This document shows, piece by piece, positions 6,498 through 53,954 of a DNA stretch of 64,000 nucleotides. Position numbers and translations under genes: made by a program. Under the pieces are notes generated by a model. That model was not told the DNA's origin and did no database searches. It saw nothing but the letters and a program-made list of their open reading frames with translations. The DNA comes from a phage: assembly GCA_033286805.1 (NCBI GenBank), contig GCA_033286805.1_4727.1; one strand, written 5' to 3'. The stretch's first letter is position 1. Every line of letters starts with the position of its first letter.

Positions 6498-6521
6498 GAA
6501 TGAAATCTCGCTGGCTTACTT

Positions 6522-6545
6522 CACTTAAGTAATATAGCCGTGAAA
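6522..6545 (-). promoter_or_regulatory. conserved 24-bp promoter-like box, copy a
   Basis: Plus reading CACTTAAGTAATATAGCCGTGAAA; minus reading TTTCACGGCTATATTACTTAAGTG; 25 nt upstream of ATG of 5841-6497(-). Confidence 0.55.
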
Positions 6546-6647
6546 AATGTTGGAATAAGTTAAATACCGCAACCGCAGCTAATTTTATAGGCTTTTAGCC
6601 TAAACCAATCATCTTCGGAATCATCATCTTTGAAACAGGAATCTATC

Positions 6648-14040: not shown

Positions 14041-15129
14041 ATGAGCGACCTGGCAACAGACAATCGCACAAAAGGGAGTCAGCTAGCTCCAGACAACAAC
14101 GTAAGCGTTTTCCGTATCTTTGCCTTGGGTACTGTTGCTGCCGACTTTTCCAATAAAAGTCTGGAGGAAGATCCTAACCAAACGCTGGAGGTCTTTCTTG
14201 ATGAGATGATGTCAGGCGCTGATGGGAAAGTTGAAGCGGCGGGAAGCGTTAAAGAAGTCAGTGCAACAGACGCTCAAGGAAACAGCTATACGGCGAAAGC
14301 GGCAACAACAACCAGCGTACAGTGTTACTGGTTACCCTTCGGCAGTAACCGGATGACAGCACCTAACTTGAGGAAAGGTCAGCGTGTGGTGGTTTGGCGT
14401 ACCGCCGATGAAGAACAGCTCTACTGGCAACCCAAAGGAGGGGATAGCGAGCTGATGACCATGGAATCGGTTATCCTCACCGTCAGCGCACGTCCTAGCG
14501 CTAAGAAGGACCGTAAATCGATTTCAACGGAAGACTGCTATTACCTAATGGTTGATACCTTCCTCAAGAAGGCGGTTATCGGCACCAGCGCACAGCTTGG
14601 TGAAGTTACCCAAGTTTACATGGAACTTAATCTGGACGAGGGTTACCTACAGGTTGCGGACAGCGTCCATCAAAATCTGCTGTTACTCCATTTCGTTGAA
14701 CATATGCTGCGTTATCAAAACCAGGATGACAGCATCATCGACGTGACAAAAAAGAACATCACATTCCAGTGCGAGGATACGCTCAAAGCAATCGCTAAGA
14801 ACGATATCCGAATGAAAGCAAAAAACATTTATACCGAATGTGAGAACTTCGAGCGTACCAGCAAAACAGAAAGCGTTACGAGTCAGAATGTTTCTTTGAA
14901 GTGTGATCGTTACACCGCGCAAGTATCAGGACAGACCATGTTTAAATGTCCGAATACGGTATTCACTGGGGCTGTAAGCTTCACAGGTGAAGACGGAAAC
15001 ACGATGACGTTGAATGGGAACTTCATACACGTCGCAGGCTCTTGGCGTTCACCAACCGGAACAAACGTATACACCCACGATCACGGCGGTGTAGACCGTG
15101 GCAGCGGTCGTACAGATCCGTTCCAATAA
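14041..15129 (+). CDS. hypothetical protein (362 aa)
   Basis: ATG 14041 with AGGAG SD 8 nt upstream; followed by A-tract and hairpin 15150-15183. Confidence 0.6.
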   Translation: MSDLATDNRTKGSQLAPDNNVSVFRIFALGTVAADFSNKSLEEDPNQTLEVFLDEMMSGADGKVEAAGSVKEVSATDAQGNSYTAKAATTTSVQCYWLPFGSNRMTAPNLRKGQRVVVWRTADEEQLYWQPKGGDSELMTMESVILTVSARPSAKKDRKSISTEDCYYLMVDTFLKKAVIGTSAQLGEVTQVYMELNLDEGYLQVADSVHQNLLLLHFVEHMLRYQNQDDSIIDVTKKNITFQCEDTLKAIAKNDIRMKAKNIYTECENFERTSKTESVTSQNVSLKCDRYTAQVSGQTMFKCPNTVFTGAVSFTGEDGNTMTLNGNFIHVAGSWRSPTGTNVYTHDHGGVDRGSGRTDPFQ

Positions 15130-15149
15130 AAAAAAGAAATGCTATACAA

Positions 15150-15183
15150 CCTCCTTCCCTAGCCGTCAAGGCCGGGGAAGGAG
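15150..15183. terminator. CCTCC/GGAGG palindromic hairpin (H3, variant loop)
   Basis: cctccttccc ... gggaaggagg 10-bp stem with inner gcc/ggc stem; A8 tract upstream, T-rich downstream; convergent junction 14041-15129(+)/15200-15589(-). Confidence 0.7.
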
Positions 15184-15199
15184 GATTATAGTTTATTTA

Positions 15200-15589
15200 T
15201 TAACGCGTTGCATTCTGGATGATTTCTTTTCCGATCTTAACCAAAGCGGGTATCTGTACAGCGGTTGCGCCTCGATGACGAAACGCGGTCGTTAACGCGG
15301 TATCGATACTCACCGCACGTCCGTGAAGACGATCGAAATAGACTTGAGTGATTGCGGTAGCGTAATCCTTTCGCTGTTTCTTGGTTTGGCTCAACAGCGC
15401 CGCACTATGACTAACGATGAAGTAAGCGATTAAGAAGAACGCCGCTGACCGCGAACCAGGTAGAAAACCTTGTCGCTTAGGGAGCATCTCACAATCGCGA
15501 ACACTATTATCGTTCGCCAGCTCTTCCATATCAACACAGCATAATTTTGCATAGGTGTGGAGATAGTGGGTAAAAGTTGAATTTAACAT
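15200..15589 (-). CDS. hypothetical protein
   Basis: ATG 15589 with GAGGAAAG SD; last ORF of minus block ending at hairpin 15150-15183. Confidence 0.45.
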   Translation of the reverse strand: MLNSTFTHYLHTYAKLCCVDMEELANDNSVRDCEMLPKRQGFLPGSRSAAFFLIAYFIVSHSAALLSQTKKQRKDYATAITQVYFDRLHGRAVSIDTALTTAFRHRGATAVQIPALVKIGKEIIQNATR

Positions 15590-15695
15590 TTTTCTTTCCT
15601 CGATTACAATGAGTTCAATGTATAGCTTAAACGTCACAGAACGACGTATAACGGTTTGTTTTAATTTCTAATGGGTTTCCTTATCTAAGATTGAA

Positions 15696-16058
15696 TTAAA
15701 GCGCTCTGAAGAGTTCTGTAGCGTTCTCGTCACGTAAACAGGCTTCGTTCAACAATTCAGCTAACAGCTTCGACCGAACTTCAACAAATGTCCTGAGGCG
15801 ATGCTCCCATTCTAAACGGATAGTGTACGTATTATCCAGGTTTTTGTAATCAACGACAGATACCGAGCAGCGGGGTTCACGTTTGTTCACAGCACTCCAA
15901 ACATCACGGATAACCGTCACGCCTTTCTTGGTGCATGTAAACGTTAAAATACAGCGGTTATTCGCAGCTTCTTCACGGACGCCAACAAATTCACTTCGTA
16001 ACGATGAGACTTTGATCAGTCGGTCAATGGCGAGCGATAAACCGATACGTTGTTGCAT
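15696..16058 (-). CDS. small protein, tandem paralog family member
   Basis: Shares motif NRCILTFTCTKKG with next gene (MRCVRLTFVCTTLGK); AGAGGGGA SD before ATG. Confidence 0.5.
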   Translation of the reverse strand: MQQRIGLSLAIDRLIKVSSLRSEFVGVREEAANNRCILTFTCTKKGVTVIRDVWSAVNKREPRCSVSVVDYKNLDNTYTIRLEWEHRLRTFVEVRSKLLAELLNEACLRDENATELFRAL

Positions 16059-16059
16059 A

Positions 16060-16488
16060 TCAAATCCCCTCTTTCAGAATCTCATTGAGGCTATTAGCAA
16101 CCGCATCTAACTTCGTGCTGATTACTTTTGGTGTCAATCCGTATATTTTCCAAACTATCTGTGGTTGACGTATTCCATTTGTCTGACAATACATCTCGAT
16201 CGACAACACCATATCGTCGGTGAACGTCGTGCTTTCGCAACAACGAAGATAGGCAGCCTCAAGCAACGTCTTTCCTAACGTGGTACACACAAAAGTCAAT
16301 CGAACGCAACGCATAGACAACGTGTTCGCATTCATTGATGCTGAGATCGGCTGAATGTGTTCACGCAGTTTTTCGTCTTCACGTAAAAGTGATAGGGTGC
16401 GATGTAAGCTGGTGTGCTGAGCAACCAGTGAATGATAAAGACCAACGCGCGCTGCAGTTACTGCTGATTCGGGCCATTTAATTTTCAT
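16060..16488 (-). CDS. small protein, tandem paralog family member
   Basis: Motif MRCVRLTFVCTTLGKT shared with 15696-16058. Confidence 0.5.
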   Translation of the reverse strand: MKIKWPESAVTAARVGLYHSLVAQHTSLHRTLSLLREDEKLREHIQPISASMNANTLSMRCVRLTFVCTTLGKTLLEAAYLRCCESTTFTDDMVLSIEMYCQTNGIRQPQIVWKIYGLTPKVISTKLDAVANSLNEILKEGI

Positions 16489-16503
16489 GTTCGATTCCTC
16501 GTA

Positions 16504-16947
16504 TTAACACTGTGTTCCATTCGATAAGCGGGTGGTATCAAAACGATCCAGTTGGTGTACAATGCTATTAGCAACACGATGCAAATAGTGTATTTTGTCC
16601 ATTCGTGAAATCGCAGAAATCGTCCAGCAAGCCTCTGACGTCCAATAGGTGCCGTCTTCACTAAGGCTAACGTTATAAACTAACTTCGTCATCACATTTC
16701 TCGCCTTATGCTCAGCAGACCAGAATATGTTTTCTAACACATCCTTCCCCGTTTGTGAAAACACGAACCCAAGCTTCACGTCGAAGTCGGATGCTTCAAG
16801 ATTAACGCAGTGAAGATGATTCTCTAACGGCGCAAAAGAGGCTAAACGTTCCAGCGCGTTTTGCAGTGTGGGATGATCGAGCTTTTCGAGATCATCCACA
16901 GGTTGTTCAGGTACAATCGCGATCGATTTACAGAATTTAATTTCCAT
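16504..16947 (-). CDS. small protein, possible distant paralog
   Basis: Weaker related motif KLGFVFSQTGKD; preceded by palindromic element 16978-16995. Confidence 0.5.
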   Translation of the reverse strand: MEIKFCKSIAIVPEQPVDDLEKLDHPTLQNALERLASFAPLENHLHCVNLEASDFDVKLGFVFSQTGKDVLENIFWSAEHKARNVMTKLVYNVSLSEDGTYWTSEACWTISAISRMDKIHYLHRVANSIVHQLDRFDTTRLSNGTQC

Positions 16948-16964
16948 GGTAGGTTCCTCTTGAT

Positions 16965-16995
16965 AGATGGTAGTAACGGGGATACCGCGGTATCC
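16965..16995 (-). promoter_or_regulatory. TAGTAA + GGATACC palindrome element, copy 1
   Basis: ggTAGTAAcGGGATACCgcGGTATCCC; 18-bp perfect palindrome at 16978-16995; ~31 nt upstream of ATG of 16504-16947(-). Confidence 0.45.
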
Positions 16996-17004
16996 CCTAA
17001 GTCT

Positions 17005-17475
17005 TTATAACACGCCCCAAGCCATATTGGGTACAGGCTCGTTACGTTCGATGTAATACATCAAGCGTTCTTTAAGTTTGGTTAACGCCTCAGCAACGAT
17101 GTTCTCTATGGCGACGACCTTTTCCATATTGCTCATCGTATCCTTCCACGTGAACCATTCGATCAAATTAACGGTGTGTAAGACCTTGTTATCGTCGGTC
17201 ATAACCTGGGTATTTTCACGACGATCGCGGGTTGTATACAACGGCGTTTGTATATTCGTTTTAATACGTGTCCAAAGCTCTTCCAGGAACTCACTCGATC
17301 GACTATCTGCCGTGACGATAAGCTCACTACGTACTGATTGTTCTCCTCGCTTTTCAATAACAAATAAACCATCGTAATCGATGTTCATCAATTTACGGAG
17401 GTTATCATTGCTATTCCAGTCTTTTACAACGGCAGGAAGTCGGCTATTGTAACCTTCAGGCAATCTCTCAATCAT
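17005..17475 (-). CDS. hypothetical protein
   Basis: ORF on dominant strand; overlaps next gene by 8 nt. Confidence 0.5.
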   Translation of the reverse strand: MIERLPEGYNSRLPAVVKDWNSNDNLRKLMNIDYDGLFVIEKRGEQSVRSELIVTADSRSSEFLEELWTRIKTNIQTPLYTTRDRRENTQVMTDDNKVLHTVNLIEWFTWKDTMSNMEKVVAIENIVAEALTKLKERLMYYIERNEPVPNMAWGVL

Positions 17476-17905
17476 CGGTTTCTGCTCCTATATCACGTTT
17501 AAGGTCGGCCACCAGTTTTTCATAATGGTCTTTTATTACATTGGCAATAACGAATTGCACTTTTCTCACCAGCTGCTCATTGGCATCACTGAACGTAAGA
17601 TGCTCACGCACTTCAACCGGACGTGATACACCGCCGATATCGTAGACTTTGTTCGATGTACGGCGAGCAATCACTGGAAGCGGTTCCACGGCGGCCAGTG
17701 CAGTACAGATTTCCGTAACGAGTTCTTGAATGCTGCTTCTGCCTTCGATAATAACAGAACAGCGATAGACATCTACCTCGTTAAGCTGTTCAACGACATC
17801 AGCCTTGATTTTGAAATTTCCAATAAGCGAGCTCACCAAAGTGCTATGCCAGTTGTTCACCACCCCGACCAACAGCGGATGATTCTCAAGATCTCTTCTA
17901 TTCAT
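17468..17905 (-). CDS. hypothetical protein
   Basis: ORF on dominant strand; preceded by hairpin 17944-17966. Confidence 0.5.
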   Translation of the reverse strand: MNRRDLENHPLLVGVVNNWHSTLVSSLIGNFKIKADVVEQLNEVDVYRCSVIIEGRSSIQELVTEICTALAAVEPLPVIARRTSNKVYDIGGVSRPVEVREHLTFSDANEQLVRKVQFVIANVIKDHYEKLVADLKRDIGAETDD

Positions 17906-17943
17906 CAGTTAGCTCCTAAATAGATCTACAACGAACTTTCGAT

Positions 17944-17966
17944 GGAAGGGAGTATGTTTCCCTTCC
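17944..17966 (-). terminator. GGAAGGGA/TCCCTTCC hairpin (H4)
   Basis: Perfect 8-bp stem, 7-nt loop; between minus genes 18081-18371 and 17468-17905. Confidence 0.5.
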
Positions 17967-18080
17967 TTGGGTTCGTTTATTGCGTTACGAAGCTTTACAG
18001 CTTGCGTAAACCACAACGGTTCCATTGTTGATTACCTCAACATCATCCTGGTCCGTTTGATCGCAAGTTTGGTGTCCGCA

Positions 18081-18371
18081 TTAACTCCCTCTGTGGTGCG
18101 AAAACAAAACATCTAACTGTTCCCGTTGTTCTTTTAAGCATGCAGGAAGCTGGTCTTCCCGTACCGTTCCGATTTCCAACGTGATGTACCAACGTTGTTC
18201 TGAGGCCTGCCATTGAAAACTGCTCTGTAACCGCAGGATGTTAGGATCACGTACCTTGTTTGCACTGTAACGGTTGAACCAATCCAGGTATTCTGCTTTC
18301 CCTTCCTCGTCGGCAACGTAACGCTGCACGCTGTTCTTCCCTTTGTTCTCGTATCCCGTTGCACGTATCAT
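18081..18371 (-). CDS. hypothetical protein
   Basis: Start set at ATG 18371 overlapping upstream stop (ATGA coupling). Confidence 0.45.
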   Translation of the reverse strand: MIRATGYENKGKNSVQRYVADEEGKAEYLDWFNRYSANKVRDPNILRLQSSFQWQASEQRWYITLEIGTVREDQLPACLKEQREQLDVLFSHHRGS

Positions 18372-19150
18372 GCGAACGTTTCTCCTGTAATGTGTTGTGG
18401 GCGTTGTAGCATGGTAACATCCCATTGTACGATCCGGCTCCGGCTTACCAGCATCATGACGGATTCATCATCAAGCCCTGGTTGCGCAACCGGCAACCAA
18501 CGTTCGTTAAGCACCTTCGCTTCAACGCGTTTCTTGCGGGGATTGTAACGCACCTCGCTGACCCAAGCGAATCCAAGCGGATGCACAACCCGTGGATAAT
18601 ACATGCGAAGCAATTGATGCATTTGATCCATTGCCTCCAAGCTCGCATCCGCCAGGTAAGGTTTCACCATGGCAAGCTTTTTGGTGTAATACGTTCCAAC
18701 GGTATGGTTCGCCCACCCAGGAAGCGCGTGATGGAATCCTACCTGTAATTGTGTATTGCCGTTCACCTTCAGCCAACCGTATTGTCCCGCCGCACGTCCC
18801 TCGTCAGTATCGATCCATGTAAGTATATCGATGAACGCACGATCGGCGATCTCGATGCGTTCCACCCGTTCATCCAACGCACCACGTACCACGAATCCGC
18901 TCGCGCTCAGCCGTGCAGGATGCTGGCTACGATGTGCGTACCAATTCTTGTTGCCGGTAAGCAGGTAAGGATACAAGTGCGCACCACGCCAAACAACCTT
19001 TCCGTTCGTCCCGTCGACGCAACGTACACGCATCCCAGCCTGACCGCTGCTGTAGCATGCTACCCTCACGCATTCGTTTTGAACATCGCTCGGTAACGCC
19101 AGGTATTCATCTCCAGTAAACATGGTATCAAAAATCAATGCTTCTTTCAT
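18368..19150 (-). CDS. hypothetical protein (260 aa)
   Basis: First ORF downstream of promoter box 19234-19257. Confidence 0.55.
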   Translation of the reverse strand: MKEALIFDTMFTGDEYLALPSDVQNECVRVACYSSGQAGMRVRCVDGTNGKVVWRGAHLYPYLLTGNKNWYAHRSQHPARLSASGFVVRGALDERVERIEIADRAFIDILTWIDTDEGRAAGQYGWLKVNGNTQLQVGFHHALPGWANHTVGTYYTKKLAMVKPYLADASLEAMDQMHQLLRMYYPRVVHPLGFAWVSEVRYNPRKKRVEAKVLNERWLPVAQPGLDDESVMMLVSRSRIVQWDVTMLQRPQHITGETFA

Positions 19151-19233
19151 CTAAAAAGATCCTCTGTTTTTCACGTTAATTAAACAACGTATTGATTTCT
19201 ATTTGACACAATACGAACATTGTACGTATCTAT

Positions 19234-19257
19234 CACTTAGGTAATATAGTCGTGAAA
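19234..19257 (-). promoter_or_regulatory. conserved 24-bp promoter-like box, copy b
   Basis: CACTTAGGTAATATAGTCGTGAAA; 84 nt upstream of ATG of 18368-19150(-). Confidence 0.55.
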
Positions 19258-19370
19258 GGATTTGCATTAAAGCAAGGGTTTTGTTTTTTAAGAAGGGATG
19301 GATTTAGAAGAGGTGTTTCAAGGAAGGTAAACGAGGATAGGTATTTTGATTTAAGTAAGTAAGTAAGATG

Positions 19371-19516
19371 TTATCTGTATTTGTTAAAAGTGTATTGTCT
19401 AAGTTATCTTGTTTATCTTAGGTTATGTCTTATTGTTTAATCGTTTTATCTTTGTATGTTTAAGTTGTTTTATTTATCTTGTTTGTTTATTTAAAAGTAA
19501 GTTAATAAGCTTATCT
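19371..19516. repeat. six dispersed TTATCT(T) copies in AT-rich non-coding region, plus (AAGT)4 microsatellite at 19353-19368
   Basis: TTATCT at 19371, 19404, 19414, 19446, 19484, 19511. Confidence 0.6.
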
Positions 19517-19531
19517 TCAAAACAATGGATA

Positions 19532-19564
19532 ACATGTGTTTACCACCTTAACGGTAACACATGT
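19532..19564. repeat. inverted repeat ACATGTGTT / AACACATGT (9-bp stem, 15-nt spacer)
   Basis: Perfect reverse complements read directly. Confidence 0.6.
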
Positions 19565-19612
19565 CATCTGTGCATTACACTCCGCTATCACTTCGTTACA
19601 TGCTTATATGTT

Positions 19613-19800
19613 GGATAACTCAAAAAACATTTGTGATACTCTTCTTCACGTTGTTCATCAGAGTATCTCGTCTATACTCATTGCATTCGTATACGACATA
19701 ACCGTTATACGCTAACGCTACGCTTATAGCTTGATAACTCTAAGGATAAAAACATAAACTCGCTTCGCTCGTTTAGTTTTTCTTTTTCTTAGAGTTATCC
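19613..19800. repeat. GGATAACTC boxes: direct at 19613-19621 and 19732-19740, inverted at 19792-19800; 13-bp inverted repeat GATAACTCTAAGG / CTTAGAGTTATCC
   Basis: Exact 13-bp inverted repeat at 19733-19745 and 19788-19800; third box 120 bp upstream. Confidence 0.6.
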
Positions 19801-19963
19801 TGTTGCTCGTCTCTAAAGGACTTCGCTCCTCCCCCGTCCCCCGAAGGGGCCGAGGTCGTGGAAATTTTACTTTCCAAATACATTTACAACATCTGTAAAC
19901 TTTTACTCCAGGTACTTAATCTTATCATTAGAAATTATAAAAGAGAATAAACACAAACATAAA

Positions 19964-19995
19964 CCTTCCTCCAACCCAACAGGGAAGGAGGAAGG
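19964..19995 (-). terminator. CCTCC/GGAGG palindromic hairpin (H5)
   Basis: ccttcctcc-aa-ccc-aaca-ggg-aa-ggaggaagg, 17 nt downstream of stop of 20012-20905 gene. Confidence 0.7.
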
Positions 19996-20011
19996 GAGAG
20001 ATTAATTAAAA

Positions 20012-20905
20012 TTAATCAGCGACGTTATAACCGAATACTGCTTTACCGTAGGTGTGAGTACCGTTAGCTAACGACAGCACCAGCACATGGTTGTACGTAG
20101 CGTTAACGCCCTTGTCAGTAGACTCGGTGGTAGCACCGTTATAGACAAAGGTAGCCGTTTGCAGATTGGCTTTCAGTTCATTGATGATATCATCACTTAC
20201 GCCGGTCTGCTCTTTGATCAGGGTGGTCAGGTTACCTGCTAAGCTTGCATCGATATTTACTTCGTTGCCAGTAATAGCTTGTAAACCTGGAGCGTAAGTA
20301 CTGAAGTCTAACGGATAGGTTAACAGACGTGCTGACGTTTTGGTACCATCGCCTTCATCAACGTAGGTTAAGTTACCCAGGTTGGTAACCTTGATGATGT
20401 TAGCCAGATCCAGCGTGGTGTTATAAACTTTAACTTGAACAGAGCCATACCACGCCAACGAATCTTCTTTGGCTTCCAGGGTGATCGTCTGGATACCTGA
20501 CTGATCAAAGGTAACCTGAGTAGCTAACGTTTCGGCTTTGATGTCTTTCGTTTTATCCAGGAACTTCTCACCGGAAGGCGTGATCATACCGTAGCGTTGA
20601 GCTACAAGGTCAACCACATCACCGATGGTGGTGTTCGCCTCAACGTTAACACGTACAGCGATCTTCTGGAACCACTTAGCCAGATCCAGACGATGGTAGG
20701 TGACATCGCGGTTATTGAAGTAAGGGGTACCTTCACCAGGACTAAGTGTTAAAGTTGCTTCTGGAGCAGAAGGATTCTTTTCTTTAAGGACGTATTTAAG
20801 GTCGGTGTATTTAAAGTTGGCACCAGTGTCGGCGTTGAGCTGGTTAATCTCATCAACGATAAGTTGCCAAGGTGTTTTTAAAGTAAGCGATACTTGAGCT
20901 GTCAT
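20012..20905 (-). CDS. abundant virion protein, paralog family member A
   Basis: Strong codon bias; shares YxNRxDL / LAWYGSV-type blocks with 21048, 31966, 33788, 34650 genes; followed by hairpin 19964-19995. Confidence 0.7.
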   Translation of the reverse strand: MTAQVSLTLKTPWQLIVDEINQLNADTGANFKYTDLKYVLKEKNPSAPEATLTLSPGEGTPYFNNRDVTYHRLDLAKWFQKIAVRVNVEANTTIGDVVDLVAQRYGMITPSGEKFLDKTKDIKAETLATQVTFDQSGIQTITLEAKEDSLAWYGSVQVKVYNTTLDLANIIKVTNLGNLTYVDEGDGTKTSARLLTYPLDFSTYAPGLQAITGNEVNIDASLAGNLTTLIKEQTGVSDDIINELKANLQTATFVYNGATTESTDKGVNATYNHVLVLSLANGTHTYGKAVFGYNVAD

Positions 20906-47271: not shown

Positions 47272-47415
47272 CCTCCATCTGATTGAAAACTATCACGCAT
47301 AATACATTTCCCTTTTCTTGTTCTTATCAAGCCGACAGCCGACGGTTTCAGCATCGTTCCTAGCGCGAGAACGACCTTACGTGTTGTCTATGCCTTATTC
47401 ATCGAAGGCGTCTGT

Positions 47416-47439
47416 CACCTAGGTAATGTAAGCGTCAAA
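47416..47439 (-). promoter_or_regulatory. conserved 24-bp promoter-like box, copy c
   Basis: CACCTAGGTAATGTAAGCGTCAAA; between hairpin H9 and start of 45829-47271(-). Confidence 0.55.
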
Positions 47440-47473
47440 TTTTTTCTATTCGCAACGATAAACGGCATAGAAA

Positions 47474-53693: not shown

Positions 53694-53896
53694 CGTATTT
53701 TACCTTTCTATGTTAGGTGGATTGCGGATAGAAGAATCAATGCATAGATTGATCGTTCTATGTTAGAAATTATTGCCGAACTGGTTATGGTTATAACGCG
53801 TGTTTTCGTATGCTGACGGGTCGCGTATTAATAAGGTCATGACTGTATCCTCGATTATTAAGAGAAATTTACAACGATAACAGTAACCGCTGTTAT

Positions 53897-53920
53897 CACC
53901 TAGGTAATGTAGTCGCGAAA
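53897..53920 (-). promoter_or_regulatory. conserved 24-bp promoter-like box, copy d
   Basis: CACCTAGGTAATGTAGTCGCGAAA; between hairpin H11 and minus block starting at 53693. Confidence 0.55.
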
Positions 53921-53954
53921 TAAACTGGAGTAATGCGAAATAAGACAGCATAGA

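Follow-up and report, generated by a model that had tools for sequence, protein, structure and literature searches.

In jumbo phages that possess their own RNA polymerases, early operons carry a phage-specific, conserved AT-rich element of ~10 nucleotides (nt) centred near -10, which is read by the virion polymerase and which, in phiKZ, is also found at the chimallin gene (PMC7598289; PMC8244752). Escherichia phage vB_EcoM_Goslar (Goslar) is a well-studied nucleus-forming jumbo phage (chimallivirus) of E. coli, for which RNA sequencing (RNA-seq) of infections with chimallin knocked down, that stall at the early-infection vesicle and run the virion-polymerase programme only, has been published by Armbruster et al. 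(10.1101/2023.09.20.558163). Here we describe a cassette of small minus-strand genes at positions 15200-19150 of a 64,000-nt stretch of phage DNA (GenBank assembly GCA_033286805.1, contig GCA_033286805.1_4727.1; the whole stretch is termed the window below). The closest phage record to 15000-20000 is Goslar (91% identity over 80% of the query in a megablast search of 50,697 phage records, the sole match), and the cassette is the counterpart of Goslar gp014-gp021 (HOV27_gp014-021), every one of which is annotated 'hypothetical protein'. We put at about 50% the probability of the following interpretation as a whole: the region is a single early operon of a nucleus-forming jumbo phage related to Goslar, consisting of eight genes from private, fast-changing families, whose products would bind host factors before the phage nucleus exists and may counter host defences.

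The timing of expression can be read from the Goslar orthologues. In the chimallin knockdown all eight of gp014-gp021 show log2 fold changes (log2FC) of +0.8 to +1.4, with raw reads about those of the wild-type infection (10.1101/2023.09.20.558163, Supplementary Table 2), whilst gp005-gp013 and gp022-gp036 drop 2^3-2^7-fold, the immediate flanks gp013 and gp022 by 2^4-2^6.6 (10.1101/2023.09.20.558163). Because gp014-gp021 stay transcribed while the flanking genes fall, these data support the reading of the sequence upstream of the cassette as an early promoter, as had been proposed in a preliminary description of the window from its letters alone; they place the orthologues in the early class, and the late timing that would have spoken against that proposal is not seen. 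Comparison of the promoter boxes described below with the RNA-seq data, made on sampled rows of the Goslar expression table, extends this correspondence, in that the early blocks in the first 50 kb of Goslar (gp004-001, gp021-014, gp040-037 and gp047-044) are exactly those downstream of four matrix sites, and that at six further Goslar sites the first downstream gene (gp075, gp105, gp159, gp175, gp182 and gp246) has a log2FC of ~+1, in several cases with a sharp step from the gene upstream. The genes are also translated: tandem mass tag mass spectrometry of infected cells detected the products of Goslar gp015, gp016, gp017, gp018 and gp021, the last being the most abundant of the five.

The box itself, which the preliminary description had called promoter box b, proved to be genuine, TTTCACGNCTATATTACNTAAGTGA matching three times in the window at <=3 mismatches where 0 matches are expected, such that the box ahead of the cassette (19257-19233) has two further close copies by pattern search. 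A position weight matrix identified four window sites (6553-6518, 19265-19230, 47447-47412 and 53928-53893, all on the minus strand) scoring 40-46 bits, with nothing else in the window scoring above 14 bits; the cassette's own box is the highest-scoring of the four (45.7 bits) and is kept in 13 related genomes. Pattern search of the Goslar genome located ~12 sites, again all on the minus strand and either between annotated genes or at a gene edge, of which one ends 72 nt upstream of the ATG of chimallin (gp246) and another 57 nt upstream of gp175, labelled as the non-virion RNA polymerase (nvRNAP) in Table S4 of the virion paper. The counterparts of these two genes fall beyond the window, and the comparison was accordingly made in Goslar. 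The occurrence of the same box at both genes supports, with the persistence of gp014-gp021 transcripts in vesicle-arrested infections, its assignment as an early promoter, and sigma-70-like promoters were not found in excess (5, against 9 expected). The arrangement resembles that of phiKZ-like early operons, in which a recurrent conserved AT-rich box stands ahead of operons consisting mainly of small hypothetical genes, chimallin has the box as well, and transcription does not depend upon nucleus formation; however, the Goslar lineage has a box sequence of its own (consensus AAA..TTTCACGnCTAyATTACCTnnGTGA), and the gene content of the cassette is unrelated to the phiKZ early genes at the sequence level. 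The other three window boxes (6518-6553, 47412-47447 and 53893-53928, minus strand) precede the counterparts of Goslar gp004-gp001, gp040-gp037 and gp046-gp044, the other early blocks in the RNA-seq data, and the Goslar gp047 annotation overlaps one early box.

The coordinates of the cassette and its control signals are collected in Table 1. The preliminary description had counted nine tightly packed small genes; the positions of its minus-strand open reading frames (ORFs) were borne out, but the number is eight, with products of 260, 96, 145, 156, 147, 142, 120 and 129 amino acids (aa) in gene order. The starts of the 18081 and 15200 genes were corrected to internal ATGs that match Goslar gp020 and gp014, and these two are the exceptions to the presence of a GAGG/AGGA-type ribosome-binding site, which precedes six of the eight ATGs. 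As judged from the predicted signals at its two ends, organisation of the cassette as a single unit from promoter to terminator is supported, and the Goslar annotation has a terminator at the place equivalent to that in the window. The arm motif CCTTCC/GGAAGG is common to hairpins at three gene ends (15150-15184, 17944-17966 and 19964-19995), which suggests a common terminator family in this phage.

Table 1. Positions of the cassette genes, the associated signals and the flanking features in the window.
Feature	Position	Strand	Description
Promoter box	19233-19257	minus	early (virion RNA polymerase type) box TTTCACGACTATATTACCTAAGTGA; extended matrix site 19265-19230
5' leader	19158-19229	minus	hairpin ATACGTAC..GTTCGTAT (19229-19211), conserved across relatives; ribosome-binding site AGAGGA from 19165
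Gene 1, 260 aa	18368-19150	minus	orthologue of Goslar gp021, 90% identity; family C
Gene 2, 96 aa	18081-18371	minus	orthologue of Goslar gp020, 88% identity; singleton; start overlaps gene 1 stop as ATGA
Deletion scar	17906-18080	minus	non-coding gap of 175 nt; 3' remnant of gp019-like 91-aa gene and hairpin GGAAGGGA..TCCCTTCC (17966-17944)
Gene 3, 145 aa	17468-17905	minus	family B; no Goslar counterpart, found in many relatives
Gene 4, 156 aa	17005-17475	minus	family B; allelic replacement of Goslar gp018, 36% identity
Gene 5, 147 aa	16504-16947	minus	family A; orthologue of Goslar gp017, 98% identity
Gene 6, 142 aa	16060-16488	minus	family A; 56% identity to Goslar gp016
Gene 7, 120 aa	15696-16058	minus	family A; orthologue of Goslar gp015, 95% identity; lacks N-terminal ~20 residues
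Gene 8, 129 aa	15200-15589	minus	100% identical to Goslar gp014; conserved tail of operon
Terminator	15150-15184	T-run on minus	hairpin CCTCCTTCCC..GGGAAGGAGG then T-run; back-to-back, common to plus-strand tail-spike gene
Tail-spike gene	14041-15129	plus	flank; counterpart of Goslar gp013
Intergenic region	19151-20011		860 nt, separates cassette from DUF7941 gene
DUF7941 gene	20012-20905	minus	flank; abundant virion protein, counterpart of Goslar gp022

The window phage and Goslar thus share the position of the cassette between gp013 and gp022, its strand, its promoter box and its terminator, and for six of the eight genes the Goslar counterpart is an orthologue with 56-100% amino-acid identity. 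The two phages nevertheless differ in content, since the 145-aa family-B gene is absent from Goslar and gp019 survives in the window only as a remnant, and in alleles, the counterparts of gp018 and gp016 being just 36% and 56% identical. The remnant amounts to ~100 nt from the 3' end of a gp019-like 91-aa gene that relatives keep intact, and in the scar it is joined to the end of the 96-aa gene (blastn to locus L012). Despite the low identity, gene 4 and gp018 belong together, as profile-profile alignment (hhalign) of the 156-aa and 135-aa groups gave E = 2e-54. Gene 8 encodes a basic protein (isoelectric point (pI) 9.5), in which residues 48-66 form a single hydrophobic, transmembrane-like segment; the gene is unlike the rest of the operon in having the lowest diversity in the cassette and a 106-nt spacer ahead of it.

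Three paralogue families can be distinguished. Family A comprises three copies in the window phage, the 15696, 16060 and 16504 genes, which the preliminary description had connected through a motif RC-[IV]-x-L-TF-x-CT-x-x-GK said to be shared by the first two and present in weaker form in the third. The motif is exact in 16060-16488 (RCVRLTFVCTTLGK), and the weaker version in 16504-16947 was confirmed as VKLGFVFSQTGK; in 15696-16058, in contrast, it is recovered only by allowing a one-residue deletion and a K->V change (RCILTFTCTKKGV). Tandem paralogy of the three is nonetheless supported by shuffle tests (p = 1e-3 for 15696 vs 16504, 8e-3 for 15696 vs 16060 and 1e-2 for 16060 vs 16504), by comparison of profiles constructed from orthologues (147-aa vs 142-aa groups, E = 5.8e-6 over 103 columns; 120-aa vs 147-aa groups, E = 3e-4), and by an alignment of 43 sequences that is colinear from end to end. 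The invariant residues in this alignment (L28, F66, G72 and W113) occupy hydrophobic-core or glycine positions only, with no conserved polar or catalytic residues among them. Family B, overlooked in the preliminary description, consists of the 17005 and 17468 genes and provides the most significant single pair in the cassette (shuffle p = 2e-4, 24% identity over 136 aa). Merger of A and B into one five-member family was suggested by a MAFFT alignment but gained no significant support from hhalign (E = 0.18-0.57) or shuffle tests (p = 0.2-0.9). Family C is represented by the 260-aa gene, of which the window phage has one copy and relatives have one to three more in tandem, of 280-300 aa; its invariant residues are D8, H73, H190-P191-x-G193 and W243-D244, and no fold match was obtained for the 260-aa protein. 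The remaining two genes are singletons, one of them the small basic protein with the transmembrane-like segment.

The 142-aa member of family A was modelled with confidence by AlphaFold2 (AF2; predicted local distance difference test score 87, predicted template modelling (TM) score 0.83) as an alpha-beta-beta-alpha-beta-beta-alpha two-layer sandwich, in which N-terminal helices are followed by a beta-beta-alpha-beta-beta-alpha arrangement. Among the 142-aa orthologues, conservation is found at the N-terminus, in the helix spanning residues 26-42, in an RLTFxCTxLGKxLLE core and in the C-terminal LNEILKEGI, while variation falls mainly in the beta1-beta2 tip, the alpha2-beta3 link and strands beta3/beta4, so that variability lies on one face. 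Comparison with a viral structure library gave eight Foldseek matches at E <= 0.001, all of them uncharacterised proteins of 149-168 aa and most from jumbo phages; those that can be named are PhiPA3 gp356, which is annotated as similar to phiKZ gp290, and proteins of 201phi2-1 and of the Erwinia phages Stratton, Kwan and Simmy50 (E = 8e-6 to 4e-4, TM 0.5-0.6). These proteins resemble family A in predicted fold, size and jumbo-phage origin, but no sequence relationship to it is detectable (hhalign E = 0.31). Comparison of the model with known anti-defence folds, as had been suggested, returned no match to any known anti-defence family.

In an alignment of the locus from 13 genomes, variation peaks in the cassette, the remainder of the locus being conserved. 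Backbone genes have a nucleotide diversity (pi) of 0.02-0.06; the corresponding values are 0.17-0.26 for the 260-aa, 0.27-0.30 for the 156-aa and 0.15-0.19 for the 142-aa gene, with a return to ~0.02-0.03 in the last gene. Ratios of nonsynonymous to synonymous divergence (dN/dS) are 0.12-0.47 for the cassette genes over many pairs, against 0.02-0.03 for the spike and SbcC-like genes, and the cassette genes are therefore constrained, about ten times less strongly than the spike or SbcC-like gene. At the same time dS in the most variable genes (0.55-0.75) is 3-4x that of the backbone (0.16-0.18), which points to exchange of old alleles by recombination, and not just to faster change. The rapid diversification ascribed to these genes in the preliminary description accordingly holds as regards a hypervariable hotspot, but would largely reflect old-allele exchange together with gene gain and loss; with dN/dS below 1 and dS inflated, positive selection is not demonstrated.

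Gene content varies between 7 and 11 among relatives. The Goslar-type cassette runs 260-99-91-135-147-141-120-129 aa; a shorter type has the 156-aa allele and no 91-aa gene; the window type has the 145-aa gene in addition; long types, with up to 11 genes, have two or three extra family-C copies; and further variants lack one family-A copy. Two hybrid ORFs on related contigs are evidence of deletions that brought neighbouring cassette genes together: P0079 aligns in part to the 260-aa gene (93 aa, 92%) and in part to a gp018-like gene, and P0085 combines 49 aa that align to a 156-aa-like gene with 65 aa that align to a gp017-like gene. In the most divergent relative found, a 1.5-kb metagenomic contig (L019), a family B-like gene of 151 aa is followed by genes of 140 aa and 120 aa, and the 147-aa gene is missing; the proximity of families A and B thus predates the sampled Goslar-like genomes.

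Frequent deletions, the two hybrid ORFs and the lack of database homologues with a function are features that decaying or non-functional filler ORFs, resembling one another in motif by chance, might also display. This explanation is effectively refuted by the dN/dS values, by detection of five Goslar orthologues as proteins, and by the confident AF2 model of family A and the statistical support for paralogy. Polymorphism of this type, both allelic and in presence or absence, among very close phages that share hosts would also be expected of genes involved in competition between related phages, i.e. superinfection exclusion or incompatibility directed against co-infecting Goslar-like phages. 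Immediate-early expression and the membrane-like character of one product are compatible with such a function, as many exclusion systems include a membrane protein; but no similarity to known exclusion proteins was found and the data do not separate this function from host-directed ones, and we regard it as rather improbable.

Searches for relatives indicate the cassette to be confined to one lineage. The statement in the preliminary description that the genes have no recognisable enzymatic motifs is upheld, as no credible match was found in Pfam, PHROGs, NCBIfam, PADLOC or the sequences of the PDB, and none of the called genes in all cassettes examined has a precomputed Pfam match. Goslar alone was recovered by tblastn of all eight proteins against the 50,697 phage records. 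A set of 5.8 billion proteins was searched three times, with 86, 32 and 42 matches, all of them close relatives of cassette proteins; those with a named source are hypothetical proteins of E. coli, Salmonella and Shigella assemblies, many on contigs of 235-250 kb. Exhaustive HMMER search of 1.84 billion representatives with a family-A profile identified eight genuine clusters, all from Goslar-like phages, together with one 3205-aa match (P0120) that was rejected as an artefact, a USP17-like tandem-repeat sequence of eukaryotic type that owes its score to ten weak, identical repeats added together. A search of IMG/VR with the most divergent family-A member found nothing, and literature searches on the motif string, phiKZ gp290 and Goslar non-coding RNA found nothing useful. 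On the basis of these searches, the cassette families are private to Goslar-like phages.

This restricted distribution bears upon the possibility that the cassette proteins serve the phage's own early programme rather than acting on the host, as accessories to the vesicle, to passage of the genome into the nucleus, or to shell assembly or import. Several observations are in keeping with such a role: the operon is co-expressed with the chimallin, PicA, ChmC and non-virion polymerase genes at the vesicle stage, the conserved gene 8 with its transmembrane-like segment could sit in the vesicle or inner membrane, and the nearest structural neighbours of family A, uncharacterised and 139-168 aa long, come mostly from other jumbo phages. 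Core machinery is, however, conserved across chimalliviruses, whereas the cassette families have no sequence-level presence outside Goslar-like phages, and variation in copy number, with alleles only 36-56% identical between phages whose core proteins are near-identical, is more suited to dispensable accessory genes; we therefore consider this explanation possible but unlikely.

The location of the cassette between the tail-spike gene and that of the abundant DUF7941 virion protein also raises the question of whether its products are virion-packaged, injected or structural proteins. Goslar gp017, gp018 and gp016 do appear in the purified-virion mass-spectrometry table, at ~18.6, 3.8 and 0.6 estimated copies respectively, and the product of 15696-16058 has a weak PHROG match to a baseplate wedge family (E = 0.0024 over 46 residues). 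Virion association of gp016-gp018 was nevertheless rejected, as 0.6-18.6 copies fall below known contaminants (78-170) in the same table and the transcription class of the genes is early, making a virion role very unlikely.

Within the intergenic region upstream of the cassette we observed a conserved, non-coding block of ~280 nt (19628-19907, minus strand), with pi of 0.002-0.011 in 13 Goslar-like genomes compared to 0.02-0.06 for neighbouring conserved genes; it remains 91% identical even in a relative whose spike and DUF7941 genes are 85% and 77% identical. The block folds into six hairpins (z = -5.6), one of them capped on the minus strand by a C(UUCG)G loop, and several of its substitutions are wobble-compatible on the minus strand only. 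A covariation test, for which the sequences are too similar, identified no double compensatory change. Scans of the intergenic region, including the block, for Rfam families, transfer RNAs and transfer-messenger RNAs gave no match, and no conserved ORF was found in the block, which we consider a candidate structured RNA or cis element. At its 5' edge (19892-19907, minus) lies a 16-mer, AGTAAAAGTTTACAGA, of which a one-mismatch copy occurs at Goslar 173085-173100, ~110 nt upstream of the chimallin early box, and which may be a second promoter type; if so, the conserved block would be a separate transcript ending at the hairpin and T-run at 19565-19531. Between block and promoter (19330-19500 and 19590-19632) are an A-rich zone of AAGATAA-like repeats, indel-rich among relatives, and a short variable zone in which some genomes have an inserted perfect hairpin, AACGTTTTGT..ACAAAACGTT, with the loop inverted in one genome.

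Taken as a whole, the evidence shows or strongly supports the cassette to be an early, virion-polymerase-driven, lineage-restricted and hypervariable accessory operon with real protein products. A counter-defence role, which would fit with the timing, the polymorphism and the sensing of early proteins by bacteria, is a reasonable guess. Phage accessory ('hyperplastic') or anti-defence clusters include early small-gene arrays, such as those with T7 Ocr and Gp1.2, and anti-CRISPR loci. Like these, the cassette is expressed early, encodes small proteins, is restricted to one lineage, is polymorphic both in alleles and in the presence or absence of genes, and contains expanded paralogues, but it differs in that none of its members matches a known anti-defence protein by sequence or fold. 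The anti-restriction, anti-CRISPR or host-shutoff content envisaged in the preliminary description thus found no backing in sequence or fold likeness to any known anti-defence protein, and the strongly acidic composition of DNA mimics was not encountered either, pI values of 5.2-9.5 and net charges of -5.9 to +5.9 being calculated across the cassette proteins.

Several further considerations weigh against our interpretation of the locus as an early unit with a possible function in countering host defences. Early timing is taken by analogy from the sister phage Goslar rather than from the window genome itself, and, because ~58% of Goslar genes fall into the 'early' class of the chimallin-knockdown study, early expression alone is weakly discriminating. 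The start of transcription and the continuity of the operon are predictions from sequence, and the hairpin at 17966-17944 sits inside the proposed unit. Values of dN/dS below 1 give no proof of an arms race, neither experiment nor homology ties any cassette protein to a defence system or host target, and the invariant His and Asp residues retained by family C mean that this protein could be an enzyme.

By analogy with the sister phage, a course of events consistent with these data would begin, after injection, with transcription of the genome by the virion-packaged RNA polymerase within the early-infection vesicle, starting at about a dozen copies of one box, of which that at 19257-19233 would drive the cassette. 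The cassette mRNA would then be exported and translated in the host cytoplasm ahead of formation of the phage nucleus. In the vulnerable minutes before the nucleus forms, the resulting proteins may bind host factors stoichiometrically, with the hypervariable beta-sheet face of family A as a putative contact or evasion surface. Because the phage hides its DNA, first in the vesicle and then in the protein nucleus, classical anti-restriction or anti-CRISPR roles would seem less obvious, and host factors of immunity or takeover that detect or act upon proteins or RNA, as opposed to DNA, would be the most plausible targets.

A precedent for host recognition at this stage is provided by JADA (Pa36 gp316), an early chimallivirus protein that is sensed by Avs5 at the vesicle (PMC12931631). 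JADA is early, chimallivirus-restricted, novel in fold and active at the vesicle stage, and demonstrates that host immunity senses such proteins (PMC12931631); the likeness to the cassette products is one of properties and implies no homology. JADA is, moreover, described as essential, whereas the cassette genes vary in copy number and allele, which suggests that they are dispensable. A bolder interpretation, in which the cassette would be a modular, recombining arsenal of three undescribed families with new or unassigned folds, deployed from the vesicle against protein or RNA immune sensors as a chimallivirus anti-defence island, and in which the adjacent ~280-nt element (about 19907-19628) would be a new phage RNA or cis element of the same early region, is speculative and in our estimation doubtful.

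Public records already listed the genes as hypothetical proteins, and a published supplementary table already showed their early transcription; new here are the description of three private paralogue families and that of the cassette as a variable hotspot. The value of the cassette is as a well-defined candidate, not as a demonstrated mechanism. By concealing their genome, nucleus-forming jumbo phages escape immunity directed at DNA, yet they are exposed during the first few minutes of infection, while early proteins are being synthesised in the host cytoplasm. Because the cassette constitutes the main difference at this locus among otherwise near-identical phages of E. coli, Salmonella and Shigella, it is a sensible place in which to seek determinants of host range or counter-defence, and it offers natural allele and copy-number variants in a lineage where Goslar is already open to knockdown.

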